IMG/VR virus record: IMGVR_UViG_3300020042_013343
Span: 1 to 24,673 of that record
DNA: 24,673 nucleotides
Source: a virus
Lineage: Duplodnaviria > Caudoviricetes
Reading direction: 5' to 3' (one strand)
Shown here in pieces: positions 75 through 21,140 of the stretch. Numbering within the stretch: position 1 is the stretch's first letter; each line of letters opens with the position of its first letter. The notes beneath the pieces were generated by a model, which saw only the letters and a program-made list of their open reading frames with translations, searched no databases and was not told the origin of the DNA. A program made the translations under genes and the position numbers.

Positions 75-1031
75 ATGACAAAAGTAGTTTACGTAACAGG
101 ATGTTTAGGGTTTATAGGATCCTATGTAACAAGAGCTTGTTTAAATAAAGGATGGTATGTTAAGGGAGTTGATAAAGGAACGTATGCAGCTAATAAAGCT
201 TTACTAAAAGAATTTAAAGACTACAGTAACTTCTCATTTGTTGATTGCGATATAAATGATCTAAAGTTTTTATACGATTGTGATTATATAATCAATACAG
301 CAGCTGAGACTCATGTAGGTAATTCAATTGCTAACTCAGATGATTTTGTATCTTCAAATGTAAATGGAGTTCACAATCTATTAGAGTTGATTAAGAATCA
401 TAGAGGAGAGCATTCAACTAAACCTACCTTACTTCACTTCAGTACAGACGAAGTATATGGAGATATTGAAGAGGGAGAACATATCGAAACAGACTTACTT
501 AAACCATCCAATCCATACTCAGCTACTAAAGCAGCAGCCGATATGCTTGTAACAGCATGGGGTAGAACATATAATCTTCCATATGTAATAGTTCGACCAA
601 CAAACAATTATGGAGCAGGTCAGTATACAGAAAAGTTAATTCCAAAAGCTTTAAAGTATTTAAAACTAGGAAAGAAGATTCCATTACACAATGGAGGTAC
701 TCCAATCAGAACTTGGCTTCATGCCCAAGATACAGCCAACGCTGTTATAAAGATAATCGAATCAGGAGTACAGAATGAAATATTTAATATCTGTGGAGGA
801 TTTGAGCAAAGTAATTTGGAAACCATTAAAAAAGTTCTTACATTGTATAATAAGGATCAGGTTTATATGCTGGAAGACTTTGTAGACTTCTCATATGACA
901 GACAAGGACAAGATGTTCGATATGCTTTGAATGATGATAAATTAAGAGCATTAGGATGGAAGCCTCAAATAAACTTTGATACTGAATTAAAGTATATTGT
1001 AGAATATTATAGAGAAAAATTCATATGGTAA
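75..1031 (+). CDS. rmlB: dTDP-glucose 4,6-dehydratase (extended SDR)
   Basis: TGCLGFIG Rossmann motif, AAETHV, STDEVYG, PSNPYSATK (YxxxK) and NNYG motifs typical of RmlB/RfbB. Confidence 0.9.
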   Translation: MTKVVYVTGCLGFIGSYVTRACLNKGWYVKGVDKGTYAANKALLKEFKDYSNFSFVDCDINDLKFLYDCDYIINTAAETHVGNSIANSDDFVSSNVNGVHNLLELIKNHRGEHSTKPTLLHFSTDEVYGDIEEGEHIETDLLKPSNPYSATKAAADMLVTAWGRTYNLPYVIVRPTNNYGAGQYTEKLIPKALKYLKLGKKIPLHNGGTPIRTWLHAQDTANAVIKIIESGVQNEIFNICGGFEQSNLETIKKVLTLYNKDQVYMLEDFVDFSYDRQGQDVRYALNDDKLRALGWKPQINFDTELKYIVEYYREKFIW

Positions 1032-1642
1032 AGTTAAAAAAGAGAATAGCCGAAATAGCTTATACACATAAGCTAGGACATTTAGGAAGCTATCTATCAA
1101 GTGTAGAAATTGTTGATGAGATCTTTTCTAAGATGGATAAAGATGATATCTTTATACTATCCTCAGGTCATGCATCCTTAGCAATGTATGTATGCTTGGA
1201 GAAGTATCATGGAATAAATGCTGAGGAGTTATTTATCAAGCATGGAGGACATCCTCATAGAGATGAAGAGAATAAAATATACTGCTCAACAGGAAGTCTA
1301 GGATTAGGATTAACGATTGCTCTAGGAAGAGCAGTAGCTAATCCAAAGAGAAAGGTTTGGGTATTGATAAGTGATGGTGAAGCAGCTGAAGGAAGTATTT
1401 GGGAGGCTTTAAAAACTATTGTAGAGGAAAAGATTGATAACATAGAAGTATTTGTTAACATAAATGGACTATGTGCGTATAAAGAAGTTGATCAAGATTA
1501 TATCTCAGCTAGATTGAAAGCATTTTTACCTACGATCAACTTAAGGTACACTACAGTGGAGCAGTATCCTTTCTTAAAAGGACTAAATGCTCACTACCAT
1601 GTAATGAATGAAGATAATTATAATCAAGTTTTAGAATCATAA
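1025..1642 (+). CDS. Transketolase-like N-terminal (TPP-binding) subunit
   Basis: GHLGS, ILSSGHA, STGSLGLG and SDGEAAEGSIWE...N TPP-binding motif. Confidence 0.88.
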   Translation: MVKLKKRIAEIAYTHKLGHLGSYLSSVEIVDEIFSKMDKDDIFILSSGHASLAMYVCLEKYHGINAEELFIKHGGHPHRDEENKIYCSTGSLGLGLTIALGRAVANPKRKVWVLISDGEAAEGSIWEALKTIVEEKIDNIEVFVNINGLCAYKEVDQDYISARLKAFLPTINLRYTTVEQYPFLKGLNAHYHVMNEDNYNQVLES

Positions 1643-1643
1643 T

Positions 1644-2120
1644 ATGAGAAGAACGTTTGCAAGTTTACTGCACCAGGAAATGGAGCATAATCAGGACATA
1701 CATTTAATAACAGGTGACTTAGGTTACGGATTATGGGACAGTATTAGAGATACTTATCCTGATCGCTTTCATAATGTAGGTTCTTCCGAAATGGTTATGA
1801 TGGGAATGGCTATTGGATTGGCAATGGAAGGAAAGATTCCTTTTGTATACTCTATTACTCCTTTTGCAATCTATAGGCCTTTTGAAATGATTAGAAATTA
1901 TTTAGATCATGAAAAGATTCCTGTAAATATTATTGGAGGAGGAAGAGATAAAGAATATGGTTACTTAGGATTCTCTCATTGGTCTCATGACGATAAAAGA
2001 ATTATGGGAGTATTTGATAATATCAAAACATATCATCCAGAAACAGATGAAGAGTTAACAGACTTCTTTAAGTATACATTACAAAAGAGATCTCCAATCT
2101 ATATCAATTTAAAGCGATGA
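1644..2120 (+). CDS. Transketolase-like pyrimidine-binding subunit (short, no C-terminal domain)
   Basis: TGDLG, PDRFHNVGSSE, GLAMEG, RPFEMIR and GFSH motifs; 158 aa. Confidence 0.85.
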   Translation: MRRTFASLLHQEMEHNQDIHLITGDLGYGLWDSIRDTYPDRFHNVGSSEMVMMGMAIGLAMEGKIPFVYSITPFAIYRPFEMIRNYLDHEKIPVNIIGGGRDKEYGYLGFSHWSHDDKRIMGVFDNIKTYHPETDEELTDFFKYTLQKRSPIYINLKR

Positions 2121-2890
2121 AAATATTAATCACAGGCGGGAATGGTTATCTAGCAAAGAGTATTACAAAGAGCTTATGGAGTAAGTATCATATAATAGCT
2201 CCAGGTAGAGATGAGTTAGACTTAACCGATAGTAAGTCTGTTGATCGTTTCTTTAAAGATAAATACTTTGATGTAGTTATACATACAGCTATAAAAGGTG
2301 CAGCTAGTCCTAGAGATCCAGACGAGACTATTTCATTTTGGAATTTAGTTATGTTCTATAACTTAATGTCAAAGAGAGATCATTTTAATAAACTAATCAA
2401 TATAGGTTCAGGAGCTGAAAGATACTTATCAGAGACTCCGTACGGACATAGTAAAAGTATTATCAATAAGTTAGTTCATAAGTATGATAACTTTTATACT
2501 TTAAGAATATATGGAGTGTTTAGTGAGGATGAATTAGAGACAAGATTTATAAAAGCTAGCATCAATAATGTATTACAAGGTAATCCAATAAAGATACATC
2601 AAGATAAGCTAATGGACTTTATTTATATGACTGACTTAATCTCTATAGTTGAGCATTACATTGTAGGTAAAGATCTATTAAAAGAAGTAGACTGTATATA
2701 TGACGATACTGTTTCGTTAAGTAATATAGCTCAGCAAATAAATAATCTATCAATAAATAAAGTACCAATCAATATAGAGGATCCTCTTCCAGGACAGAAC
2801 TATCTAGGAACTTACAGCGATCTTCCAATAGCTTACCTAGGATTGGAACAAGGAATTAAAAATGTTTACAATAAATTAAATAACATATGA
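2117..2890 (+). CDS. NAD-dependent epimerase/dehydratase/reductase (SDR)
   Basis: ILITGGNGYLA, YGHSK (YxxxK), LRIYGVF, DFIY; ATGA overlap with the upstream gene. Confidence 0.85.
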   Translation: MKILITGGNGYLAKSITKSLWSKYHIIAPGRDELDLTDSKSVDRFFKDKYFDVVIHTAIKGAASPRDPDETISFWNLVMFYNLMSKRDHFNKLINIGSGAERYLSETPYGHSKSIINKLVHKYDNFYTLRIYGVFSEDELETRFIKASINNVLQGNPIKIHQDKLMDFIYMTDLISIVEHYIVGKDLLKEVDCIYDDTVSLSNIAQQINNLSINKVPINIEDPLPGQNYLGTYSDLPIAYLGLEQGIKNVYNKLNNI

Positions 2891-4200
2891 GCACAGAAAA
2901 AATAAGTTTTTGTATTAATACATCTAGGAATGAAATAAATCATGTTAAGTTATTATTTCGATCACTGGAGCAAAATCTATCTACAAAAGAGCATGAGATT
3001 GTAGTATTTATTGATAGCGATAATCAAGGTACTTTTGAATGGCTACTTACACAGAAGAGTATCTTTCCTAATTTAAAGATACTTAGAAATACACTTCCTA
3101 TCTGTTACGGATATTCTAGAAATATTAATGAGATGTTTGAGCAGGCTTCTAATGAGATAGTCTCATTCTTACAATCAGATATGGTAGTGTGTAAAGATTA
3201 TGATTTAGAGATACTAAAAGGACTCGAACCAGGAATGATGCTATGCTCAACTAGAATTGAACCACCTCTACATCCACCAGGCCCAGAAAAGATAACACAT
3301 GATTTTGGATTAGATCCAGAAACGTTTGACTTAGAGACTTTTACACACTTTGCAGAAAAGCATAAAGAAGATAGATTTTCAGTATATTTCTTTGCTCCAT
3401 TTACAATGTACCGAAAAGAATGGCTATCAGTAGGAGGACAGAACACTCTCTTCAGACGATCTAGAGAAGATAGTGATATGTTAATCAGAATGGTATTAAA
3501 TGGAACAAAAATGTCTCAGACTTGGAGAGCATTAGTATACCACTTTACTTGTACATCTAGTAGAGGTCCAAAATGGTTTGATCAAGACAATAAAGAAGCA
3601 CAAGAGCGGTTAAGATATCAACAACTAGCAGACATGTACGAGCTCCATAGATTTATATCGCTATGGGGAGCTTTCAAGCATGGAGACTTAATAGGTAGTG
3701 AATATAAGAAACAAGTCTACTATAATATTGCAGCTAAAATTGACACTACAGGTGCATCTTTGGAGCAGTTTTTAGAATTTGAAAGATTTTTCGATAAGAC
3801 CTATGTACAGGATACTTCTCTAATAGTTCAAACACAGAAAGTTTATGATGATCAACATAAAGCCGCTAACATACTACTAAACATAACCGACGATGTTTGG
3901 GAAGAATATAAGTATATGTACAATACCTTAGATGCATCCTCTAGAATTAAACCTCTCTCAGAATTAGAAGAAGATTCTGTGGATATATTAATAGAGTTTA
4001 GTATAAAAGATGTACATGATAGTTATATTCATGGTTTCTTAGGGCAGCTACAGGACATATTAGATGAGACTGACGATACAGGTGAGTTTAGTTACGGGCC
4101 ATTTACTTTACAAATTAATAATAAGGTAGATAGAGCAAAAGAAAGAGGAATAATAACAAACCCTCAGGTAAAGCCAGAGCATTTATACGAGGTATACTAG
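2887..4200 (+). CDS. Glycosyltransferase family 2 protein with C-terminal extension
   Basis: ISFCI start, EIVVFIDSD, FLQSDM (DxD-like), VGG...REDSD and VYHF; located in the sugar cluster. Confidence 0.72.
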   Translation: MSTEKISFCINTSRNEINHVKLLFRSLEQNLSTKEHEIVVFIDSDNQGTFEWLLTQKSIFPNLKILRNTLPICYGYSRNINEMFEQASNEIVSFLQSDMVVCKDYDLEILKGLEPGMMLCSTRIEPPLHPPGPEKITHDFGLDPETFDLETFTHFAEKHKEDRFSVYFFAPFTMYRKEWLSVGGQNTLFRRSREDSDMLIRMVLNGTKMSQTWRALVYHFTCTSSRGPKWFDQDNKEAQERLRYQQLADMYELHRFISLWGAFKHGDLIGSEYKKQVYYNIAAKIDTTGASLEQFLEFERFFDKTYVQDTSLIVQTQKVYDDQHKAANILLNITDDVWEEYKYMYNTLDASSRIKPLSELEEDSVDILIEFSIKDVHDSYIHGFLGQLQDILDETDDTGEFSYGPFTLQINNKVDRAKERGIITNPQVKPEHLYEVY

Positions 4201-9372: not shown

Positions 9373-9567
9373 ATGAAGATAGAACAAGTAGAATTGTACA
9401 AGAAGAAGTATAAGGGAGTTAAAATAGCTTTCAACTCTAGAAAGGGTGTAGGAAGGATTATAGAAGGAATAGCTGTCCAGGTGGTAGAATCTCAGGGTCT
9501 TGTAATACTTAGAGACTATGATAACTTTCCTCATTGTATATCAATAATGACATTGGAAGAGATATGA
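9373..9567 (+). CDS. Hypothetical protein
   Basis: 64 aa; A-rich leader; ATGA coupling to mgsA. Confidence 0.65.
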   Translation: MKIEQVELYKKKYKGVKIAFNSRKGVGRIIEGIAVQVVESQGLVILRDYDNFPHCISIMTLEEI

Positions 9568-9941
9568 AACTAGCAGTTATAGCACATGATGGTAAGAAAG
9601 CAGACATGGTAGCTTTCATAATGAAAAGACTAGACTTCTTTAGTAGGGTAGAAATAATTGCTACAGGTACTACAGGAAAACATATTGAACATGCCGGATT
9701 AAAGGTACAATGCTTGAAGTCAGGCCCATTGGGAGGTGATGCACAAATTGCTTCTTTGATAGCAGATGGAGAGGTCAATGGAGTTATATTCTTTATTGAT
9801 CCATTGGATGTTCACCCACACCAGGTAGATGTACATATGTTACTTAGAATTTGTAATGTATATAACATTCCATTAGCAACCAATTACAAGACAGCAGTCT
9901 ATGTTATAAATGGATTAGAAACTAAATTGAATAAAAAATGA
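9564..9941 (+). CDS. mgsA: Methylglyoxal synthase (start revised to 9564)
   Basis: IAHDGKK, ATGTTG, SGPLGGDAQI, FFIDPL..HPH..DV and NIPLATN motifs. Confidence 0.93.
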   Translation: MKLAVIAHDGKKADMVAFIMKRLDFFSRVEIIATGTTGKHIEHAGLKVQCLKSGPLGGDAQIASLIADGEVNGVIFFIDPLDVHPHQVDVHMLLRICNVYNIPLATNYKTAVYVINGLETKLNKK

Positions 9942-10172: not shown

Positions 10173-10448
10173 ATGCAAGTATGGGGTATAAATAAATTAA
10201 AAGATCCTAATTCAAATCATATCATAAGGAAGGTAGAGAAGAGAAGGGAACAATTACTACAAAGGGAACAAACTCCTAAAGTAATAAAGGAGTTAAAATA
10301 CCTAGAAGACAGAATGAAGATAGGAACAATGTTACTCAAAAGATGGCATGAAAACCATTTGGCAAACCGTTTGCAAAACCGTTTGCAAAACCGTTTCGCT
10401 AACCGTTTACATAACCAATTGAACAACCGATCCAACCAAACGAAATAA
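10173..10448 (+). CDS. Hypothetical protein whose C-terminus reads through the 12-bp repeats (xNRL)
   Basis: 91-aa ORF; the tail is derived from the tandem repeat. Confidence 0.45.
   Translation: MQVWGINKLKDPNSNHIIRKVEKRREQLLQREQTPKVIKELKYLEDRMKIGTMLLKRWHENHLANRLQNRLQNRFANRLHNQLNNRSNQTK
10350..10433 (+). repeat. Tandem 12-bp repeat block 1 (7 copies, nnnAACCRwtyn)
   Basis: gaaaaccatttg, gcaaaccgtttg, caaaaccgtttg, caaaaccgtttc, gctaaccgttta, cataaccaattg, aacaaccgatcc. Confidence 0.9.
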
Positions 10449-10510
10449 GGGGAGAGATACGGGTATAATTGCTGAGAAACACATACAAATTGCTAGGGAG
10501 ATCTCAAAAT

Positions 10511-10532: not shown

Positions 10533-10692
10533 AAAGTATACAAAGTACATAGTACTAGGTAATACATAATACTATATGACATAAGGTAATGCGTATAAAA
10601 TGGGTAGGGATAGGTGGAATAAAATTAGTAATTAATTGTCTCGTGTCCTCCTCTCTAAACAAATTTGTATATAGGACCTTGGATCCTCCCTT

Positions 10693-10878
10693 AGAACCGT
10701 TTAAAAACACCTAAGAAACCTTCCACAAAACCGATTGGAAAACCGATCTGTAAACCGTTTAGCAAACCGATCACAAAACCGATTGGGGAACCGTTTGGAA
10801 AACCGACTAGCAAACCGTTTGGTGAACCGATCCGTAAACCGTTTGGAAAACTGATTTGGCTAACCGATCTGGAAAACA
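10693..10878 (+). repeat. Tandem 12-bp repeat block 2 (12 copies in strict phase plus flanking copies)
   Basis: AAC(C/T) every 12 nt from 10717 to 10849; extra copies at 10695 and 10862. Confidence 0.92.
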
Positions 10879-10964
10879 AACTGACAACCCTAACAAAAAA
10901 TAAATTAAAAAAAAGTTGCACCGTAGGGAAAAAAGCAGTATCTTTAGGAACTAAAGACAAACAT

Positions 10965-11184: not shown

Positions 11185-11346
11185 ATGAAAACAATTCAAA
11201 TAACCCTTCAGGAAAGGTGGGCCGCTTCCCAGCACAAAATCCACAAATCAAAAAAAACCTACGACAGGAAAGACAAACATAAAAAAAGAGGATCCCAAAA
11301 GGATCCTTTTTGTTTTTACTTAAATCTTTACTTTCAGTTAAACTAA
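11185..11346 (+). CDS. ArfA-like small basic protein (53 aa; not in the track)
   Basis: MKTIQITLQERWAASQHKIHKSKKTYDRKDKHKKRGSQKDPFCFYLNLYFQLN*; KxxYxRKxKH motif; terminator inside the ORF. Confidence 0.5.
   Translation: MKTIQITLQERWAASQHKIHKSKKTYDRKDKHKKRGSQKDPFCFYLNLYFQLN
11281..11317. terminator. Bidirectional intrinsic terminator
   Basis: A7-G-AGGATCC-CAAAA-GGATCCT-TTTTGTTTTT. Confidence 0.8.
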
Positions 11347-11522: not shown

Positions 11523-11635
11523 CAGTTTGGTAAAAATAATTGTTATTTATATTGATTCTAAATTACCCTTACCTGTTGACCCGTATACCCAAAAGCAGTA
11601 TCTTTACCTCATTAATAATTAAAACGACAAACATC

Positions 11636-12031
11636 ATGATCAACGTTATTAAAAATTTATCGGTAGTACATTACATTGGAGAAAGTAAAGGGTTATTTCA
11701 GGCAGTAGTAAAAGTGCCTGCAGGGTTTATGGTAGCATATGAAATAGGATCTGACATCCCTTCTCTTAATACTTGGAAGAAAGGATCGCTACAAACTTTA
11801 CAATTCAAAAGAGAAGGATCAGCAGCTTGGCTTACAGTATTCGCTAGAAAGGGTAATAAGGTTATTTTAATTGATCAGGCAATTGCTGAGAAATTAGAAG
11901 TAGGAGTAGTTAATTCTTTATTCTACAATACAAACTTAATGGATCACAATCAGTATAAAGCAGTAGGGGCTAGAACTTGGGCTGACAAAGTATTTGTGGT
12001 CAATGAAAATAATTTAGAAAAAGTTGTATAA
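11636..12031 (+). CDS. Hypothetical protein (start revised from 11540)
   Basis: ATG 11636 follows the conserved promoter and leader. Confidence 0.8.
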   Translation: MINVIKNLSVVHYIGESKGLFQAVVKVPAGFMVAYEIGSDIPSLNTWKKGSLQTLQFKREGSAAWLTVFARKGNKVILIDQAIAEKLEVGVVNSLFYNTNLMDHNQYKAVGARTWADKVFVVNENNLEKVV

Positions 12032-12093
12032 AAAGTTGCAAGTAAAGTAAAAAAATAGTATCTTCGCACCATTAATAATTAAAACAATATAAT

Positions 12094-12312
12094 ATGTCAA
12101 AGGAATTTATGAATAACAGAGAGGTTAGGATAACTCAGGAAGGACAAAATGTATTTAGGTTTATTGCAGAGTTATTAAATAACAAGGAATTTGATATTAA
12201 CGGACCTATAACAGATACTTACTTACATGAGGTAGGATGGTTTGTAGGGTTGAGTATTGAAAAAAGGAATAGGGTAATTAAATTCCTTTTATCTAATAAT
12301 TTATTGGAATAA
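12094..12312 (+). CDS. Hypothetical cassette protein
   Basis: 72 aa, after the conserved leader. Confidence 0.75.
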   Translation: MSKEFMNNREVRITQEGQNVFRFIAELLNNKEFDINGPITDTYLHEVGWFVGLSIEKRNRVIKFLLSNNLLE

Positions 12313-12374
12313 AAGTTGCTTCGTATTACTTAAAGCAGGATCTTTAGGTATCAATAATTAAAACAATATAGGTT

Positions 12375-12500
12375 ATGAAAAAAGTTGTACTACAGGGAAT
12401 TACTTACTACGAAGTAAGTTTAGGAGGAGTTTGTTACATGTCCTTCAATCCTCAGGAATTAGTTGTTAGAATGGCACAAGCAAATTTATCTTTAAATTAA
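12375..12500 (+). CDS. Small hypothetical protein (41 aa; not in the track)
   Basis: MKKVVLQGITYYEVSLGGVCYMSFNPQELVVRMAQANLSLN* directly after the conserved leader. Confidence 0.7.
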   Translation: MKKVVLQGITYYEVSLGGVCYMSFNPQELVVRMAQANLSLN

Positions 12501-12506
12501 TTAGTT

Positions 12507-12671
12507 ATGAAAAAGAATTTATCAGTACTATTAGTCGTTACCATGTTTGCAATACTAACATCAGGTTTTGCACTTATGCCCTCAACCTGGGGGTTATTTT
12601 TAAAAGGGTTTGCAGTTTCTTTTTGTTTTTGGGCCTTAATGTTAGCTCCAGCATTTTCTACTGAAAAATAA
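12507..12671 (+). CDS. Small 2-TM membrane protein (54 aa; not in the track)
   Basis: MKKNLSVLLVVTMFAILTSGFALMPSTWGLFLKGFAVSFCFWALMLAPAFSTEK*. Confidence 0.65.
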   Translation: MKKNLSVLLVVTMFAILTSGFALMPSTWGLFLKGFAVSFCFWALMLAPAFSTEK

Positions 12672-12742
12672 TTGTAGAAAAAGTTGCACCGTATTATCTT
12701 TTACAGTATCTTTAGGTATTAATAATTAAAACAGATAAAAAT

Positions 12743-13003
12743 ATGAAAAGTTTAGATCAAGTTAACATTGAGGATATTACCTCAGACAAGAAGTATTTGT
12801 TAGTAGTTTCATTGTATGAAAGATATGGTGATGGAGGAACAGAATCTTACATAGGGACAGGAGATGAAGTTATTGAAGAGATCAAACAAATCTTTGGTTG
12901 GGAAGAGGGAGGAGAAGATGGAGAAGATGATGATTGGGCAGGATTTGTTGAAGAAAGAAATGGTGATGGAGATGATTACGTTGAAGTATTTGAAGTTGAA
13001 TAA
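12743..13003 (+). CDS. Highly acidic small protein
   Basis: About 27 of 86 residues D/E by hand count; conserved leader. Confidence 0.8.
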   Translation: MKSLDQVNIEDITSDKKYLLVVSLYERYGDGGTESYIGTGDEVIEEIKQIFGWEEGGEDGEDDDWAGFVEERNGDGDDYVEVFEVE

Positions 13004-13018
13004 ATTTTAAAAAAGTTT

Positions 13019-13047
13019 AGCGAGACTGTTGTCTCGCTTTACTTTAA
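13019..13047 (+). terminator. Terminator hairpin fused to the promoter
   Basis: AGCGAGAC-TGTT-GTCTCGCT followed by TTACTTT. Confidence 0.7.
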
Positions 13048-13088
13048 TCAGTATCTTTAGGTATCAATAATTAAAATAACAAAACATC

Positions 13089-13694
13089 ATGAGAGTAGTA
13101 GAAACAAAAGTTTACACATTCGAGGAATTATCAGCAACTGCTAAAGAGGTTGCAATCGAAAATCACAGAGACGTCAATACGTATGATGGTTGGTGGGAGC
13201 CTATCTTTGAAGGTATCACAGAGGAAGCAGAGCAAGCAGGATTCCATGTAGGGAATATTTACTTCTCAGGATTTTGGTCTCAGGGAGACGGAGCAATGTT
13301 TGAATACACTACCTTAGGGGATACATTACTAAATAAATTTGTAGATCAGTTGGATCTATCACCTCTAAGAAAGGAATGGTTGAGATCTCAGACATTTGCT
13401 CAAGGTAGAGGTGATCACTCAGGACATTACTATCACGAGAATTGTTGTAGTCATGTTATTGATTTTGAATCTAACTTTGGTTACAATTTCGCTAATATTA
13501 ATTTTTATAATTGGATTAATAGTTTTGCAGATCAGTATGAGGAGTTTGTGATTGCTGAGTACAAATCATTGTGTAGAGAATTGTATAGTAGGTTGAGTAA
13601 GTACAACGACGAACTTACTTCGGATCAGGAAGTTGCTGATACTATTATAATGAATGAATGGGAATTTGATGAGGATGGCAATAATTTTCATTAA
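13089..13694 (+). CDS. FSGFWSQGxGA / HYYHE family protein (paralog 1)
   Basis: Motifs recalled from an uncharacterised phage/ICE family often auto-annotated 'antitoxin of toxin-antitoxin stability system'. Confidence 0.7.
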   Translation: MRVVETKVYTFEELSATAKEVAIENHRDVNTYDGWWEPIFEGITEEAEQAGFHVGNIYFSGFWSQGDGAMFEYTTLGDTLLNKFVDQLDLSPLRKEWLRSQTFAQGRGDHSGHYYHENCCSHVIDFESNFGYNFANINFYNWINSFADQYEEFVIAEYKSLCRELYSRLSKYNDELTSDQEVADTIIMNEWEFDEDGNNFH

Positions 13695-13759
13695 AAAAGT
13701 TGCACCGTATTATCTTTTTCAGTATCTTTAGGTATTAATAATTAAAACAACAAAAAGTT

Positions 13760-13981
13760 ATGGAAAATTTAAAACAGATTGAGGATTTTGTTAAATCATT
13801 TGAAACAATGAATATTGATTTTGATGATTGTGATTCTTTTGAAGATTTTAAACAAGAAGGAATTGAAGAACTTGATTCTTATTTACAAGAGGATTTTGGA
13901 ATAAGTTATGAAGATCTTGATGAAACTTTAAAAAAGAATTTCATTAAGTTATTAAGAAGAGATTGGAATGAGTATTTTTAA
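13760..13981 (+). CDS. Highly acidic small protein
   Basis: About 22 of 73 residues D/E; conserved leader. Confidence 0.8.
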   Translation: MENLKQIEDFVKSFETMNIDFDDCDSFEDFKQEGIEELDSYLQEDFGISYEDLDETLKKNFIKLLRRDWNEYF

Positions 13982-13994
13982 TTAAAAAAAGTTG

Positions 13995-14025
13995 GTGAGA
14001 CTGTTGTCTCACTTTCTTTTTCTTT
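13995..14025 (+). terminator. Terminator hairpin fused to the promoter
   Basis: GTGAGAC-TGTT-GTCTCAC followed by TTTCTTTTT. Confidence 0.75.
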
Positions 14026-14060
14026 GTATCTTTAAGTATTAATAATTAAAACAATAAGTT

Positions 14061-14288
14061 ATGGCAAATTTAGTACAAACAATCGTAGAGAAGTTGACTA
14101 CAGACTTTCAAGGTAAGTTGAATTGTGAAGAACAACGAGCAGATCTATTTGCATATGTTGATGGTGAAGAAAAGAAGATAGTTGAAGTGACTACTGAGAA
14201 GGTGTATTTTGAGGGAGATAGTTTAGGTGTTGATTTGTATGATGTTGATGTACATACGTTAGCTTATCTTAATGAAATTTTAAGTTAA
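14061..14288 (+). CDS. Hypothetical cassette protein (acidic)
   Basis: 75 aa; conserved leader. Confidence 0.78.
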   Translation: MANLVQTIVEKLTTDFQGKLNCEEQRADLFAYVDGEEKKIVEVTTEKVYFEGDSLGVDLYDVDVHTLAYLNEILS

Positions 14289-14350
14289 AAAAGTTGCACC
14301 GTATCATCTTTTTCAGTATCTTTAAGTATTAATAATTAAAACAACAAATC

Positions 14351-14644
14351 ATGTCAAGAAAAATCACAGAGGAATCAATTCAGAATTTTTACAACAGAGC
14401 AAAGTTCAACAAGTCTAATATGTCAGTTGAGATCACAGACGAGGGCTTCCCATTACTAAAACTTCATGGCAATACAATTGCAGGAAGAGATTATAAAGGA
14501 CTTTGGATCACTGATGCTGGTTGGCCTACCAGAACAACATTCGAAAGATTGAATGGCCTAAATGATGTAAGCATCTATACAAAGAGAGGTCAAGTGTATT
14601 TGAATGGTGAGGAATGGGATGGAGAAAAAGTTTATATTAATTAG
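14351..14644 (+). CDS. Phage hypothetical protein (LHGNxIA...GWxTxTTxxRLN type)
   Basis: Motif recalled from uncharacterised phage proteins; conserved leader. Confidence 0.75.
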   Translation: MSRKITEESIQNFYNRAKFNKSNMSVEITDEGFPLLKLHGNTIAGRDYKGLWITDAGWPTRTTFERLNGLNDVSIYTKRGQVYLNGEEWDGEKVYIN

Positions 14645-14655
14645 AAAAAAAATAG

Positions 14656-14683
14656 GCGAGACTGTTGTCTCGCTTTTGTTTTT
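14656..14683 (+). terminator. Terminator hairpin fused to the promoter
   Basis: GCGAGAC-TGTT-GTCTCGC followed by TTTTGTTTTT. Confidence 0.78.
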
Positions 14684-14721
14684 ATAGTATCTTTAGGTAT
14701 TAATAATTAAAACAACAAAAT

Positions 14722-14979
14722 ATGAAAAATTCAGTTACTTCAGAAGTTAAAAGTATTGTTAAGGAATTAGGATTAACTTGGTTTCATGCTTATTCTGACA
14801 ATCGTGTAAAAAATAGTGTAGGGGTTAAGTTGGTTGGAACTTACTTGACTGACGATCAGAAGCAAGTTGTTAAGCAGAAAATGATCGACAAAGGTTTTGG
14901 CTTTCGTTATATCAGAGAAAATGCAAATGGTTGGAGGGGAGATTGTAATGGGACTAGGTTTTGTTTTATTAGAAAATAA
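14722..14979 (+). CDS. Hypothetical cassette protein (basic)
   Basis: 85 aa; conserved leader. Confidence 0.78.
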   Translation: MKNSVTSEVKSIVKELGLTWFHAYSDNRVKNSVGVKLVGTYLTDDQKQVVKQKMIDKGFGFRYIRENANGWRGDCNGTRFCFIRK

Positions 14980-15061
14980 TTTAAAAATAATCGGAGAAAG
15001 TGTTGCATATTAAATTCTTTCTCCGTATCTTTAGGTATCAATAATTAAAACAATAAAAGTT

Positions 15062-15292
15062 ATGGAAAATTTACAAATTACTAAAACAAAACCAGAAGCA
15101 GTATCTTTTTTAGAAGAACAAGGTTATTTACAAGATGTAATAGCAGATATTGAAGGTTTAGATGAAAAAGAACAGATAGGTGTTATTCATGATTGGTTAA
15201 ATGATGTTGATGATTTTTATGAATTGGGTAATTCTTTTGAGATGCTTAATAAACATGCAAAACAAGTTTATAAGTATCTAAAAAATAATTAA
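15062..15292 (+). CDS. Hypothetical cassette protein (acidic)
   Basis: 76 aa; conserved leader. Confidence 0.78.
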   Translation: MENLQITKTKPEAVSFLEEQGYLQDVIADIEGLDEKEQIGVIHDWLNDVDDFYELGNSFEMLNKHAKQVYKYLKNN

Positions 15293-15359
15293 TAAAAAAG
15301 TTGCTTCGTATTACTTAATTCACTATCTTTAGGTATCAATAATTAAAACAATAAAAGTT

Positions 15360-15914
15360 ATGGGTTACTCAACAATGTTAATGGGCAAAGGTTTTGACCA
15401 GCCAAGAAATTCAGTTAAACAAATTATCGAATTTTTAACTAATAATCCAGATCAAACAGAAACTGAGATTCAAGAAAAAGTTTGGGGCTATTACAGATAC
15501 GCTCACAGACAATTAGAGTCGAATAAAAAATATGCAGATCTATTGAGACGAGCTGTCGCTAAGGGTTTAATATGTCGAATTGAGAAAAAGAAAAATCAAA
15601 GTCGATTTGTTTATAGTGTTGCATCTCTAGTAGTTGACAAAGTTGAAGTGGTTGAAAACACTATACAAAATGTTATTGTAATTCCAAGACCTCTTGGTCG
15701 TTTAACTTTGTCAGTAGATGAAGTTACACAATTGTATAATGATAAATTTCTGATCGATAGTATTTTGTTAATGGTCATTAATGGTGACGATACTTGGGAG
15801 AATGAATTTGAAGTTGAGTTTAACAGACAAGACGCTAGAGAGTTTCTTACTGAGTATTTCAGTAATACAAATTACGATCAAAATTTTATTAAAAAAGTTT
15901 TGGAAAAACTTTAG
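15360..15914 (+). CDS. Putative winged-helix domain protein
   Basis: IIEFLTNNPDQTETEIQEKV...LLRRAVAKGLICRIE...RFVYSV has a wHTH-like pattern. Confidence 0.55.
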   Translation: MGYSTMLMGKGFDQPRNSVKQIIEFLTNNPDQTETEIQEKVWGYYRYAHRQLESNKKYADLLRRAVAKGLICRIEKKKNQSRFVYSVASLVVDKVEVVENTIQNVIVIPRPLGRLTLSVDEVTQLYNDKFLIDSILLMVINGDDTWENEFEVEFNRQDAREFLTEYFSNTNYDQNFIKKVLEKL

Positions 15915-15981
15915 AAAAATGTTGTCTTGTATTATTAAAAAGAGTATCTTTAGGTATCAATAATTAAAACAATATAAAATC

Positions 15982-16290
15982 ATGGCTAAAAAAACTTATC
16001 AGGACACTTACGGGACATCATTTCAAGGAGTTGTAATTCAAGCGACTGTTGATCAATTAACTAAAATCTTTGGTGAACCTTACGATAATAATACGGGTGA
16101 GGATAAAGTGAATTTCGAATGGGAAATGGAAACTGACGAAGGGGAAGTATTTACAATTTACGATTGGAAAAATTATCGTCCTTTGAGATCTGATGAAATT
16201 GTAACGTGGCATATTGGAGCTAAATCGAGAAGTATTGCAAGTGATGCAAGTTATGAAATTTTAAGAGAATTAGGAAATTTTGTTGATTAA
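15982..16290 (+). CDS. Phage hypothetical protein (GTSxQG...FGEP...DKVxxEW...TIYDWK type)
   Basis: Motif recalled from uncharacterised phage proteins; conserved leader. Confidence 0.75.
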   Translation: MAKKTYQDTYGTSFQGVVIQATVDQLTKIFGEPYDNNTGEDKVNFEWEMETDEGEVFTIYDWKNYRPLRSDEIVTWHIGAKSRSIASDASYEILRELGNFVD

Positions 16291-16348
16291 ATGTTGCTTC
16301 GTATTAGTTAAAGGAGTATCTTTAAGTATTAATAATTAAAACAGCAAT

Positions 16349-16531
16349 ATGGAAAAAGTATTTGTAAAAGTAGTTGACACAGTTGGGTTGTCACAAGAAA
16401 CTATCAGTAAGATTGAAAATCAGATGGAATACTTAGGTACTGAGGTAGTAAATGAAACTACGTTCTGTGTCCTTGCAAATAGTAAGCAGGAAATAATAAA
16501 AATATTTGACTTCAGATTAAACTTTTTGTAG
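16349..16531 (+). CDS. Hypothetical cassette protein
   Basis: 60 aa; conserved leader. Confidence 0.72.
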   Translation: MEKVFVKVVDTVGLSQETISKIENQMEYLGTEVVNETTFCVLANSKQEIIKIFDFRLNFL

Positions 16532-16596
16532 AAAAAGTTGCTTCGTATTATTAAAAAGAGTATCTTTAAGTATTAATAATTAAAACATATAACAAC

Positions 16597-17382
16597 ATGA
16601 CTAGAATTCAAGTATTACAAGACGCAAGAGCAGAGTGGGTAGAAAAACTTAATGCTGCTAAAGAAACAACAAGTGAGATCTACGCAAGAGAGCAGAATGC
16701 AATCAAAGATGTATTACTTCCTTTCTTTGAAGATTTCAGTGAAGGAGTAATAGTAGAAGTACAAAGAGGATCCGTATACTTTAAAATGTTTGATCCTGAA
16801 AGAGGATATAATAAAGAGATCTTCAGTTTGTATTTGAAAGAAGATTGGAGTGGTGATAGATCTTTCAGAGGAGTTAGTATTTCATACTACACAACTTCAA
16901 CAAATGGTGAAGATACCTGGGAATTGGAAAGATTATTTTTATTAGGAAAGGTAGCAGGAATAGTTAGATGGAAGCAGGATGAAATAGTTGATGCTGCTAA
17001 TAAAGTTAAGCCTGTTTTCAAAGAAGAGTACGAAGTTGCATTCCAGTTACAGAATATGATCAGCACTGCAATCAGTGATATTGATAATAAGATTAGAAGA
17101 TTGACCAGGGAGAGAGTTGAGTTTGATCTCAAGAATGATAGAGTTGAATTTACTGAGGGAAGGAATATTGATTTGAAGTATAATTATTCTCCTAGAGTAA
17201 TATCAATTAAGTTGATCGACTTCAGTAAGAGTGGAAAGAAGGCTACAGCAGTGTTTGAATTTGCACATGGTGGGCATACAAGTAGAGAAGAAAATTGCAG
17301 TGTTGAGAAGATAGTAGACCAGGTTACTTACTACTACCCCAACTACGCCAAAGATACCAAGAGGGAGTTGTTACCCTCTTAG
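16597..17382 (+). CDS. Hypothetical protein (helical/coiled-coil segments)
   Basis: 261 aa; conserved leader. Confidence 0.8.
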   Translation: MTRIQVLQDARAEWVEKLNAAKETTSEIYAREQNAIKDVLLPFFEDFSEGVIVEVQRGSVYFKMFDPERGYNKEIFSLYLKEDWSGDRSFRGVSISYYTTSTNGEDTWELERLFLLGKVAGIVRWKQDEIVDAANKVKPVFKEEYEVAFQLQNMISTAISDIDNKIRRLTRERVEFDLKNDRVEFTEGRNIDLKYNYSPRVISIKLIDFSKSGKKATAVFEFAHGGHTSREENCSVEKIVDQVTYYYPNYAKDTKRELLPS

Positions 17383-17395
17383 TTTTAATTATTGA
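17382..17395 (-). repeat. Inverted copy of the conserved leader (GTTTTAATTATTGA)
   Basis: Exact reverse complement of TCAATAATTAAAAC (for example 17501-17514). Confidence 0.85.
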
Positions 17396-17430
17396 CCAAA
17401 GAGAGAGCTACCTTAGGGTGGCTCTTTTGG
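17396..17430 (+). terminator. Intrinsic terminator-like hairpin
   Basis: GAGAGCTACC-TTAG-GGTGGCTCTT-TT; extendable with CCAAA/TTTGG. Confidence 0.7.
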
Positions 17431-17522
17431 GTTATAAAATAATTTGAAAATAATTGTAAAAAAAGTTGCACCACTTGTATTAATTGAGTATCTTTAGGTA
17501 TCAATAATTAAAACAACAAATC

Positions 17523-17705
17523 ATGACAACAATTAATTCTTACTTTGCAGACAAATTCCCTCACATTAACCTTCAGGGATTAGATCAATCAGTGGTTAGT
17601 GACTTTATGTCCAATACTTACTTAATAGGTTTAGACTTTCCTGAACAAATGGAATGCCTTGCAGATTATATAGTTGCAAATGACTTAACTGAAGTATCAC
17701 TTTAA
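17523..17705 (+). CDS. Hypothetical cassette protein
   Basis: 60 aa; conserved leader. Confidence 0.72.
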   Translation: MTTINSYFADKFPHINLQGLDQSVVSDFMSNTYLIGLDFPEQMECLADYIVANDLTEVSL

Positions 17706-17717
17706 AAACAACAAATC

Positions 17718-18143
17718 ATGACAAAATTATTCAGAGACGTAGATTATTACGTAGTGCAGGCTTCTAACAGCACACAGAGAGAATTTGAATTAGACTTCGC
17801 AGATGTTATAGAGGTCTATGATACAAATTCTATAACACTAACTACTGAAGATAGGAGAGAGGTAGTTATTAGTTGGGATGAGAAAGGTTATTTTAAATCT
17901 TACTTCGTACAGGAAGAAACAATACTAATGAGGTCACATCCTGGGATGGTAGAAGAGATCATTGCAATGTTACAGCATATAGATGTTGATGGAGAAACAC
18001 TACAGTACATTATTGAGAAAGTTGGAATGACAGATCAGATGTTAAGACAACTAGTAATGAATAATCCTTACACTGACACTTCAGATCTATTGAAGGAGAA
18101 AGTAGAACAAGACAATAAGTTAGTAGGAAGAGTTAATAATTAA
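17718..18143 (+). CDS. Hypothetical protein
   Basis: 141 aa; partial leader AAAAACAACAAATC-ATG without a promoter. Confidence 0.78.
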   Translation: MTKLFRDVDYYVVQASNSTQREFELDFADVIEVYDTNSITLTTEDRREVVISWDEKGYFKSYFVQEETILMRSHPGMVEEIIAMLQHIDVDGETLQYIIEKVGMTDQMLRQLVMNNPYTDTSDLLKEKVEQDNKLVGRVNN

Positions 18144-18155
18144 AACATATACATC

Positions 18156-18338
18156 ATGAGGTATTTAAACTACAAATCAAATTACGGAGTTGAAACAGTA
18201 GATTGTTTGGATCAGAAAGATTTTATCTTCTACAGCGATTTCAGAAAAGAATTAATAAGACTTTTGAACGAGCATCGTTTGGCTGGAATGGATGTTTATG
18301 TTAGTCAAAGATGTACAAAAGATTTTAAAAATAATTAG
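18156..18338 (+). CDS. Hypothetical protein
   Basis: 60 aa; leader TTAATAATTAAAAC without a promoter. Confidence 0.72.
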   Translation: MRYLNYKSNYGVETVDCLDQKDFIFYSDFRKELIRLLNEHRLAGMDVYVSQRCTKDFKNN

Positions 18339-18403
18339 TAAAAAAGTTGCACACAAAGTAAAAAAAGAGTATCTTTAAGTATTAATAATTAAAACAACAA
18401 ATC

Positions 18404-18778
18404 ATGAAAAAAGAATTAGTATTACAATCAGTTGAGAATTCAGTTAGTTCAATCTTCACTAAAGAAGATGTTATCAATCTTATCAATTCAATTGAAGAAG
18501 GATCAAGTAGAAAAATTACTCCGTACGATATTGGACGTGCGATTGATAAAACTATTGATTGGATTGAAAATAATCAAGATAATATAGTATGTTTAGATGA
18601 TGCTGAGTTTGAACTCTCTTACGACAATAGAATAGAATGTACGGGAGTAGGATTTTGTACTGACGAGATTAGAGAGGCATTAGAAAATAACTTCATGGAC
18701 TTTGGAGAAGCAGAAGTTGAAGAAGATGATGTAGTTGAGATTGAAAGAGCAGAAACTTCAGAGGAAAATGAATTGTAA
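18404..18778 (+). CDS. Acidic hypothetical protein
   Basis: 124 aa, D/E-rich; conserved leader. Confidence 0.8.
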   Translation: MKKELVLQSVENSVSSIFTKEDVINLINSIEEGSSRKITPYDIGRAIDKTIDWIENNQDNIVCLDDAEFELSYDNRIECTGVGFCTDEIREALENNFMDFGEAEVEEDDVVEIERAETSEENEL

Positions 18779-18786
18779 AAAAAGTT

Positions 18787-18806
18787 GCCTCTTCGGAGGC
18801 TTCTTT
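18787..18806 (+). terminator. UUCG terminator hairpin inside the promoter spacer
   Basis: GCCTC-TTCG-GAGGC-TTCTTT. Confidence 0.75.
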
Positions 18807-18846
18807 GTATCTTTAGTCATTATTAATAATTAAAACATATAACATC

Positions 18847-19047
18847 ATGGAAAAGTTTTTCGAAGAGCAGTTTAAAATGTTGAACAGAGGATTAGTTGCA
18901 ACTCCAAATTCAAGAGAAGATCTTGAAGCATTTGCAAAAGCCAATCAAGGTTCAATGGACATCTTGTTAATGCAAATGGCAATCAACTTTGGATATAAGA
19001 TCGCACTAGAGAATGTTCAGGAACATCTAGAGAAGGAGGTAGCGTAG
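18847..19047 (+). CDS. Hypothetical cassette protein
   Basis: 66 aa; conserved leader. Confidence 0.75.
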   Translation: MEKFFEEQFKMLNRGLVATPNSREDLEAFAKANQGSMDILLMQMAINFGYKIALENVQEHLEKEVA

Positions 19048-19284
19048 ATGGCTGAACAAGATATAAAAGGTAAGTGGACTTTGAGAGCTCCGAATAATAT
19101 TCCCAAGAGCTCTCTCCCTATGTTAGGGATGGTGTATGAAGGTACAAACAAATACTTTGGTGGTCAAGTTGTTGGAATATTAATCCAACTTCACCAAGAG
19201 AATGATGAAGCTGTGCTACAGATGAAAGGAAATAGCCTAGTCTCTGTTGATATAAAAAGTTTAAAAGTAGTTGTCTCGAGTTAA
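19048..19284 (+). CDS. Hypothetical protein
   Basis: 78 aa; abuts the upstream stop codon. Confidence 0.68.
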   Translation: MAEQDIKGKWTLRAPNNIPKSSLPMLGMVYEGTNKYFGGQVVGILIQLHQENDEAVLQMKGNSLVSVDIKSLKVVVSS

Positions 19285-19329
19285 TTAATTTAGTATCTTT
19301 AGGTATTAATAATTAAAACATATAACATT

Positions 19330-19926
19330 ATGAGAACAGTAGAAGTACGATTATTCAGTTTCAGTGAATTATCACCAACAGCTAAGCAAGTAGTATTAGA
19401 CAACTACAGAGACATCCACACACAGTTCGATGATTGGAGTGAGCCTATCCAAGAAGGTTTTAGAGAGAAGGCCACTGAAGCAGGATTCGAAATAGAAGAT
19501 ATATTCTTCTCTGGTTTCTGGTCCCAAGGTAGTGGTGCAATGTTTACCTACAGCAGATTCAATGATAGTATGTTAAAGAACTTTGTTGCTCAACTTACAA
19601 TCAAAGAAGAGGACAAAGTAATTATACTATCACAAGGAGATACATGTGGTAAAGGAATACACAGAGGACACTACTACCATGAGAATAGTTGTGACCATTA
19701 TAGTATGCTGGATAGTACTAATCCTGATTGGGAGTACGCTACGGATCTAATCTCTCAACATGAAGATGCCTTTGGGCAGTATGTGATTGATACTTACAAA
19801 GATCTTTGCAGAGAGTTGTATAGTGATCTAGAGAAGTATTACGAAGAGCTTACAAGTGATGAAGCTGTCCAGGAGTACATCGAAGAGAATGATTATGAGT
19901 TTACTGAGGATGGTTCAATCTATTAA
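19330..19926 (+). CDS. FSGFWSQGxGA / HYYHE family protein (paralog 2)
   Basis: Colinear similarity to 13089-13694 along its full length. Confidence 0.75.
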   Translation: MRTVEVRLFSFSELSPTAKQVVLDNYRDIHTQFDDWSEPIQEGFREKATEAGFEIEDIFFSGFWSQGSGAMFTYSRFNDSMLKNFVAQLTIKEEDKVIILSQGDTCGKGIHRGHYYHENSCDHYSMLDSTNPDWEYATDLISQHEDAFGQYVIDTYKDLCRELYSDLEKYYEELTSDEAVQEYIEENDYEFTEDGSIY

Positions 19927-19933
19927 AATAATT

Positions 19934-19963
19934 AAGCGAGGCTGTTGTCTCGCTTTCTTTTTT
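19934..19963 (+). terminator. Terminator hairpin fused to the promoter
   Basis: AAGCGAGGC-TGTT-GTCTCGCTT followed by a T-tract. Confidence 0.75.
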
Positions 19964-20003
19964 GTAGTATCTTTAGATATCAATAATTAAAACAAGATAC
20001 ATT

Positions 20004-20296: not shown

Positions 20297-20636
20297 GGAC
20301 TTGGAGAGGTGAGCTCGAGGTGATATCACTGTGATGTCAATTTGAAATAAGTTTGATCGTTTATTTCATGCAACGGTTTTCCACGTCGGTTTTCCAGAGT
20401 ACATAGATTAGTGTATTTCTGATAAAAATTAAGATAAAGGGATATATATTTATATACTGTAATGAAATTAAACAAGATGTGGTTATGACCCATACCTCCT
20501 ACTCCAACTTTTTCAAGTTGCGCCTACTATACACTGTTCGACCCTTCGTTGCATAGCATCAAGTTGTTGTCCTGTTATTGTATACTACAGTTGCTACATT
20601 AAGCAAAATTACCACCTATACCCCTTATCTCAATGT
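20297..20636 (-). ncRNA. Candidate non-coding RNA or regulatory region
   Basis: No ORF in the track; minus-strand promoter at 20641-20671; CAACUU-GAAA-AAGUUG hairpin on the minus strand. The 3' end is unknown. Confidence 0.35.
20371..20397 (-). repeat. Two inverted copies of the GGAAAACCG motif
   Basis: Reverse complement is CTGGAAAACCGACGTGGAAAACCGTTG, matching TGGAAAACCGA in block 2. Confidence 0.7.
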
Positions 20637-20732: not shown

Positions 20733-21140
20733 ATGAAGAAGCTTAGTAGTGCAGATTTATTTAATATATTTTCCCAGCAAGACCACGAGGTATTTGCCGA
20801 TAACGGTATGGTTGAAGAAATAGATAACGACTTTATTACTTTTGGCACTATATTAATAGGGATGCGTAATTATCAAATCCTTGACAATATTTATAGGTAT
20901 CGCTATGAGGAACAGTACGATAGCGTTAAAGATCAGTTGCAATTGAAGTATTTTGACTCTGTTATGAGATATGCCAGTAGAATCGATCAATTAAGCTTAG
21001 ATACGGTAAATGACCTCAATGATGAGTTTGGAAAACAAGAGATAGTAGGTATGTTAAATTATTTAATACAGTTTTACCAACAACAAGAGCATTACGAAAA
21101 GTGTGCAGTTATTTTTAAACTTTTACAAAAATTTATGTAA
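20733..21140 (+). CDS. Hypothetical protein with C-terminal ExYEKCA (UVR-like) helix
   Basis: 135 aa; QEHYEKCAVI. Confidence 0.7.
   Translation: MKKLSSADLFNIFSQQDHEVFADNGMVEEIDNDFITFGTILIGMRNYQILDNIYRYRYEEQYDSVKDQLQLKYFDSVMRYASRIDQLSLDTVNDLNDEFGKQEIVGMLNYLIQFYQQQEHYEKCAVIFKLLQKFM

Follow-up and report, generated by a model that had tools for sequence, protein, structure and literature searches.

Why would a phage carry, directly behind one gene of an array, an exact reverse complement of the leader that precedes this gene and nearly all of its neighbors? We asked this of a 24,673-nt stretch of viral DNA (IMG/VR record IMGVR_UViG_3300020042_013343; hereafter the window), which comes from a relative of Flavobacterium phage vB_FspM_immuto (78% identity in the HD hydrolase). 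A first-pass annotation, made from the sequence alone, had read the antisense copy and its flanking hairpins as an RNA that could occlude the initiation regions of a whole early regulon, and had offered an invertible promoter as the alternative. The analysis reported here partly supports the antisense-RNA interpretation.

Results

A cassette array with uniform promoters and leaders

Between 11.6 and 20 kb of the window, almost every small gene is preceded by a TTG...TATCTTTA promoter of its own and then by a shared leader (Table 1). The leader, TYAATAATTAAAAC, occurs in 19 exact copies on the + strand and in one copy on the - strand, compared with a mean of 0.01 and a maximum of 1 in 100 dinucleotide shuffles of the window; a twentieth sense leader, at 13064, carries one mismatch. 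The variable leader position reads C in 6 exact copies and T in the other 13 and, as had been claimed, lies opposite a G in the antisense copy. In Flavobacterium psychrophilum, the corresponding promoter box is placed at -12 to -5 in the available text of PMC9723704, and on that numbering the leader begins at +1 in 15/20 copies and lies at about -24 to -11 from the AUG. It thereby includes the -14 to -11 region, in which adenines (at -12/-13) promote initiation in F. johnsoniae, where structure in the start region lowers initiation (PMC6847099, available text). Because the promoters are of host type, we infer that the cassette genes are early genes read by the host sigmaA polymerase.

Table 1. 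Positions of the array, the carrier gene and the antisense element in the window
Feature	Position	Strand	Basis or remark
Cassette array, 20 sense leaders (predicted targets)	11612..19993	+	Leader pattern, promoters, predicted pairing
Sense leader starts, first half	11612, 12072, 12351, 12719, 13064, 13735, 14039, 14329, 14700, 15038	+	
Sense leader starts, second half	15336, 15957, 16329, 16573, 17501, 18133, 18382, 18823, 19306, 19980	+	
Six promoter-leader units whose transcripts would converge on the element	14700..17430	+	Terminator calls
Carrier-gene promoter, predicted Bacteroidota sigmaA-type	16538..16568	+	TTG -33 box, TATCTTTA -7 box
Carrier gene's own leader copy, predicted +1 to +14	16573..16586	+	Possible cis partner
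Carrier gene, 261 aa	16597..17382	+	Coiled-coil hairpin and two small beta domains (predicted structure)
Hairpin 1	17359..17380	+	Overlaps last 7 codons of carrier gene; conserved by compensatory changes
Anti-leader core, exact reverse complement of shared leader	17382..17395	+	Pattern search
Terminator-like hairpin	17396..17430	+	Strong core 17401-17428; sequence variable, structure conserved

At five points of the array (13019, 13994, 14654, 18787, and 19934), terminator-like hairpins overlie the -33 box of the cassette promoter that follows, and terminator and promoter thus use the same DNA. On the - strand, a cassette-type promoter faces about 200 nt of DNA (11522-11285) that is free of genes, partly GC-rich, and ends at a two-way hairpin (11285-11311); this stretch is a candidate non-coding RNA with a fold z of only -1.13, and many related array loci likewise have exactly one reverse-strand promoter. 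Short AAACCG-type repeats cluster just upstream of the array (10400-10450 and 10690-10880), and the genes at 13089-13694 and 19330-19926 are phrog_5162 paralogues; jumbo phages of Caulobacter and enterobacteria carry relatives of them in their terminal regions. Nucleotide-sugar epimerase, transketolase-like, glycosyltransferase, and MGS-like (methylglyoxal synthase) genes occupy 75-4200 and 9561-9941.

The antisense copy lies between two hairpins

The two hairpins that had been described around the antisense copy are both present, and the 96-nt region containing them folds with a z of -5.26, which was equaled by none of 200 shuffles. The first base of the core is also the last base of the TAG stop of the carrier gene. 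The suggestion that the core would be single-stranded holds in part for the isolated element, in which the linker is predicted to be partly open (mean unpaired probability 0.45), and fails for the full 16573-17440 transcript (0.02), in which the core is predicted to pair with the leader of its own mRNA (p 0.89). Hairpin 1 with its U run also receives a terminator-like score, which counts against the reading of the element as a small RNA.

We found no intrinsic terminator call before hairpin 1 in the six-unit block that ends at the element; a hairpin does occur at 14993, but its U tract is weak. The promoter scan detected no cassette-type -7 box at 16561-17489, that is, no cassette-type promoter inside the carrier gene.

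The carrier protein is 51.5% identical to immuto26A_136, its phage immuto counterpart. It has no Pfam or PHROG family and no Atlas match, and its structure model (pLDDT 90) found no PDB match at E 0.001, with coiled-coil matches that were generic only; matches in BFVD were limited to uncharacterized phage proteins. We considered and set aside an RNA chaperone role for this protein, for which neither a family nor, in comparisons with the whole-protein model, an informative structural match spoke.

The element is conserved while its stems turn over

Each of five related genomes that are at least 90% complete has a single antisense copy when both strands are counted, alongside 16, 14, 9, 13, and 11 sense copies. 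For a wider comparison, in which loci were also retrieved by the carrier protein alone, 114 loci including the window were examined; 15 lacked 3' DNA, leaving 99, many of which are close kin, so that the counts are not independent. The core stands right behind the carrier stop in 80/99 loci (61 distinct contexts), and nine of the remaining 19 have a detached copy, two have a copy behind an apparent frameshift, and eight have none within their downstream DNA of up to 3.1 kb. Counting the detached and post-frameshift copies, the element is present in 91/99 loci. Two copies occur in L058, L061, L062, L087, and L149; anchored scans added two further true elements and seven matches without array context.

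We aligned 41 elements of the predominant kind (type I) chosen from the 61 contexts, with the structure set from two sequences. The core is nearly invariant while both flanking stems turn over: all six core pairs of hairpin 1 change on both sides, with 98.8% of cells able to pair, and 5/9 pairs of the terminator hairpin do so. Covariation of the hairpins was 0.556, compared with 0.228 for shuffled and at most 0.184 for slid alignments. Hairpin 1 is kept although the peptide it encodes varies among relatives, and it is likely to form the 5' boundary or protector of the RNA. The degraded cores of L047, L084, L105, and L006 count against an antisense role, as does L060, whose pairing was matched by 8/100 shuffles. 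We conclude on these comparative grounds that the observation is not due to chance and that the element is a conserved phage RNA module.

The hairpin-core-terminator unit is tandemly duplicated in L062 (6220 and 6288) and L087 (about 1468 and 1545), and L006 carries on its - strand (2186-2273) a variant element in which two hairpins lie upstream and the core is shortened. Downstream of the terminator, the motif TATTTATA recurs in many relatives, including L042, L067, L079, L088, and L126, and in the window it occurs at 20448 and 20721, ahead of the gene at 20733. It is possibly a phage late promoter, and we take it to resemble the T4 late box.

The same comparison bears on the invertible promoter, in which 17382-17395 and 17501-17514 would be recombination repeats that flip a terminator and a promoter. 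These two segments do form a perfect 14-bp inverted repeat in the window. However, a reversed promoter-plus-leader is absent from every fetched phage locus, the distance from the core to the following leader varies between 73 and 1409 nt and defines no fixed segment, the hairpins covary as RNA, and the core contains changes that G-U pairing tolerates; we consider DNA inversion extremely improbable. The wobble cases are few (three A-to-G changes in 2/40 elements and no T-to-C change at core positions 1-13), and changes that break pairing also occur.

A second lineage in which element and leader have changed together

Some relatives have a shorter leader, followed mostly by GTTATG starts, and in this type II lineage the core of the element is changed to match. 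The loop of the type II hairpin complements GTTATG and is invariant in 15/15 aligned copies, and its stem covaries in 3/7 pairs. A search with the type II element finds true leaders on the opposite strand. We compared mean median duplex energies for 10 type I and 8 type II loci, excluding two intermediates, and found that each type favors its own leaders: type I elements reach -12.4 kcal/mol with type I leaders versus -8.6 kcal/mol with type II leaders, and type II elements reach -13.2 kcal/mol with type II versus -8.7 kcal/mol with type I leaders. No shuffled element (0/200) reached the observed pairing in any of six loci; among 12 further loci, 0/100 shuffles did as well in 10, and 1/100 and 8/100 did so in the other two.

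The loop of type II elements matches the AUG region with p ≤0.001 in 7/7 loci. The loops of type I elements match AUG-proximal sequence weakly and with mixed results (p 0.002-0.84), which counts against an antisense role, and a general second seed in type I loops was not supported. The type I match ends at the predicted +1 or -1, in favor of an antisense role, whereas the type II match extends 3-6 nt upstream of the predicted +1, against it.

Type II copies lie behind the carrier gene, tRNA-like RNAs, a 62-aa ORF, or a 179-aa ORF, and detached copies are 0.9-3.8 kb from the carrier gene. The tRNA-like RNA upstream of the element in L054 (6548-6693) scores 34.3 bits with the Rfam tRNA model, the sole Rfam tRNA score obtained; in L048, L052, L061, L125, L144, and L159, T-arm-like ends can be seen by eye just upstream of the element, and ARAGORN mostly does not call these RNAs. 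Within the cassette array, tRNA-like RNAs have tRNA ends and enlarged or odd middle parts.

In a quick protein tree, which mixes gene transfer with descent, type II loci are scattered among type I loci, from which it follows that the element tracks the leader of its genome and not the carrier gene. The change of the RNA between the types was probably one event. The covariation of leader and element thus represents essentially one lineage split and not many independent events, which weighs against the comparative argument.

These observations also bear on the choice between a pairing RNA and a pair of tandem terminators, in which hairpin 1 with its U run would terminate transcription first and the antisense match would be a relic left by an inverted cassette end, without a role in pairing. 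The terminator-like call on hairpin 1 agrees with this view, and so do L064 and L067, where a near-complete reverse complement of the leader plus start codon suggests that the element arose by inverted copying of a cassette 5' end. A relic does not account for the near invariance of the entire core, beyond its U run, against stems that turn over, for a core that follows the leader from one lineage to the other, or for the invariance of the type II loop in all 15 copies. We therefore judge tandem terminators to be a quite improbable explanation.

Predicted pairing is specific to the array

We scanned the first 160,000 bases of G001, which matches the immuto 2-6A record, with target windows that take in a few promoter bases. 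The 15 best-pairing of 321 ATG start regions all belonged to array genes, at -11.9 to -16.5 kcal/mol versus a median of -4.6 kcal/mol, so the predicted pairing is array-specific. In the window, the array leaders pair at -12.1 to -14.3 kcal/mol and six flanking non-array leaders at -5.1 to -8.4 kcal/mol. A point against the antisense reading is that the predicted duplexes are AU-rich and modest, at -12 to -14 kcal/mol and a net -7 to -11 kcal/mol after unfolding.

The pairing could be real and its effect something other than repression of phage genes, such as protection of 5' ends, timing of decay, or action on A-rich host start regions. The sign of the effect is not readable from sequence, the type I core ends at the predicted mRNA 5' end, and host start regions are A-rich. 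Against this, the target 12-mer was not enriched in two Flavobacterium genomes, neither of them the phage's own host (30 occurrences versus 30 in the control, and 17 versus 22), only 2 of 30 inspected 12-mer sites in these genomes precede an ORF of at least 60 aa, and the type II loop covers the AUG, which favors blocking. We see a slim chance that such an effect is the right one.

In a search for host homologues with model R1 (five bacterial genomes, 150 candidates scored per genome), the one weak match fell on the terminator of an IMP-dehydrogenase-like gene, where the core is missing, and it was rejected. One metatranscriptome run (0.05 share, contigs only) covered carrier-gene copies of relatives and did not cover the element.

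Action in cis or in trans

The strong predicted pairing within the full transcript raises the question, absent from the first-pass annotation, of whether the core acts only in cis, by folding back on the 5' leader of its own transcript and silencing or stabilizing that mRNA after transcription, with other cassettes matching merely through the common leader. Much in the data is compatible with such a role. Besides the p of 0.89 in the window, the own leader is as good a partner for the core as the consensus in 34/40 distinct type I cases, and in the window's clade it ranks high, with 1-4 leaders better out of 15-20, while the hairpin loop also complements 7 nt before the carrier's own AUG. The module is tied to one gene in 80/99 loci. 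The hok mRNA is a familiar case of 5'-3' fold-back. Type I toxin mRNAs, of which hok is an example, are held inactive by intramolecular folding (PMC11228461, available text) and provide a precedent for intramolecular silencing; as in them, the full transcript here is predicted to hide its own initiation region, but we found neither a small toxin nor a separate antitoxin RNA, and the module can move from one upstream unit to another, unrelated one.

Several loci do not fit action in cis. In 6/40 distinct type I cases (L008, L034, L064, L067, L069, and L090), the own leader has drifted and the predicted fold-back is lost, whereas the core is unchanged and equals the array consensus, in favor of action in trans. 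The own-leader run in L066 is 6 nt, and 15/18 other leaders have longer runs; in L043, 7/8 other leaders out-pair the own leader. In addition, the module is found behind unrelated genes and tRNA-like RNAs. We regard it as rather unlikely that fold-back is the only function of the core; roles in trans and in cis can coexist.

Relation to known systems

The closest likeness we found is to the FopS/GibS small RNAs of Bacteroides thetaiotaomicron (RF04319; PMC11697453, PMC7366714; available text of both), which share the Bacteroidota setting and, as predicted for the phage element too, have a single-stranded seed directly before an intrinsic terminator; the linker of the phage element is only partly open in silico (0.45). 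FopS RNAs repress by pairing at the translation initiation region of many mRNAs, and one family member derives from a 3'UTR (PMC11697453, in the parts available). They are multicopy and host-encoded, mostly have their own promoter, and target host PUL mRNAs, according to the same text, whereas the element described here is mostly single-copy, is encoded by a phage, has a hairpin on its upstream side, and matches a leader that recurs among genes of the same phage. Two FopS traits, a sigmaA promoter of their own and multicopy paralogues, are absent here (no -7 box at 16561-17489 and one copy in 5/5 genomes), and RF04319 found no match in the five related genomes, where the B. thetaiotaomicron control matched, or in the window. 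Of the traits of 3'UTR-derived small RNAs that act in trans, a conserved seed complementary to target initiation regions and covarying with them is present. By analogy, then, the element may work like FopS/GibS without being a member of that family.

Among phage systems, the Rfam C4 model found nothing in the window at E values of 1 or below and nothing locally at values up to E 10, and an Rfam search of the element gave nothing near the gathering threshold. The C4 antisense RNA of P1/P7, like P4 CI, is a phage RNA that undergoes processing and exposes segments able to pair with repeated target sites. The operon on which C4 acts is a single, downstream one in a temperate phage, whereas the predicted targets here are 10-20 separate transcription units. 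In T4, the RegB endoribonuclease and the RegA repressor shut down many early mRNAs through a motif common to initiation regions (PMC3014915, available text); these are proteins that act on GGAG Shine-Dalgarno or AU-rich operators, whereas the phage described here would use an RNA, in a group of hosts that lack Shine-Dalgarno signals.

Our literature search found no description of such a phage RNA, with most subscription papers outside its reach. The accessible text of a 2025 review of phage small RNAs (PMC12197685) yielded no such system, and the motif was not found in four supplementary files of PMC10690425, whose other supplements, outside this search, may list the RNA. Within the reach of these searches, the module is uncatalogued.

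Discussion

The comparative support for a module that would pair with the shared leader is strong. We think that the module probably acts as an antisense RNA, derived from the 3' end of a transcript, that lowers translation of the cassette genes as a group. It would be made by read-through from cassette promoters, likely as the 3' end of converging cassette transcripts, because the carrier gene harbors no internal cassette-type promoter and no strong terminator intervenes from 14700 onward. The unprocessed transcript would first fold its core onto its own leader. As this sequestration is predicted (p 0.89), action in trans needs a release step, and decay or tRNA-like processing may free the hairpin-protected 3' piece. 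The freed piece would be stable and accumulate as a small RNA, pair with the first 14 bases of cassette mRNAs, and cover the A-rich initiation region (about -24 to -11 from the AUG), damping translation. The outcome would be a delayed negative feedback on the whole array. Every transcript that contains the module also bears at least one leader, so an excess of the RNA over its targets would depend on greater stability.

We tentatively extend this model to a function: a standardized leader and one processed antisense RNA, placed downstream of the promoters that drive the array, may together act on 10-20 swappable genes as a timer or dosage limiter made of RNA alone, a reading we hold to be plausible but short of probable. 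The model is directly testable in the cultured pair of immuto 2-6A and Flavobacterium sp. LMO8, which carries both the gene and the array, and the two natural leader/anti-leader types are a ready-made swap pair. A possible use is as a compact translational repressor for Bacteroidota genetics.

To our knowledge, the end of the early program of large lytic phages is only partly understood, even in T4, where proteins bring it about. If the model is true, a single RNA directed against an array-wide leader would be a different solution from that of the T4 proteins, and it would explain the uniformity of the leader across the array. If the timer or limiter reading is also true, the module would be to a host lacking Shine-Dalgarno signals what RegB is in T4, with RNA in place of protein, and newly captured cassettes would come under its control automatically.
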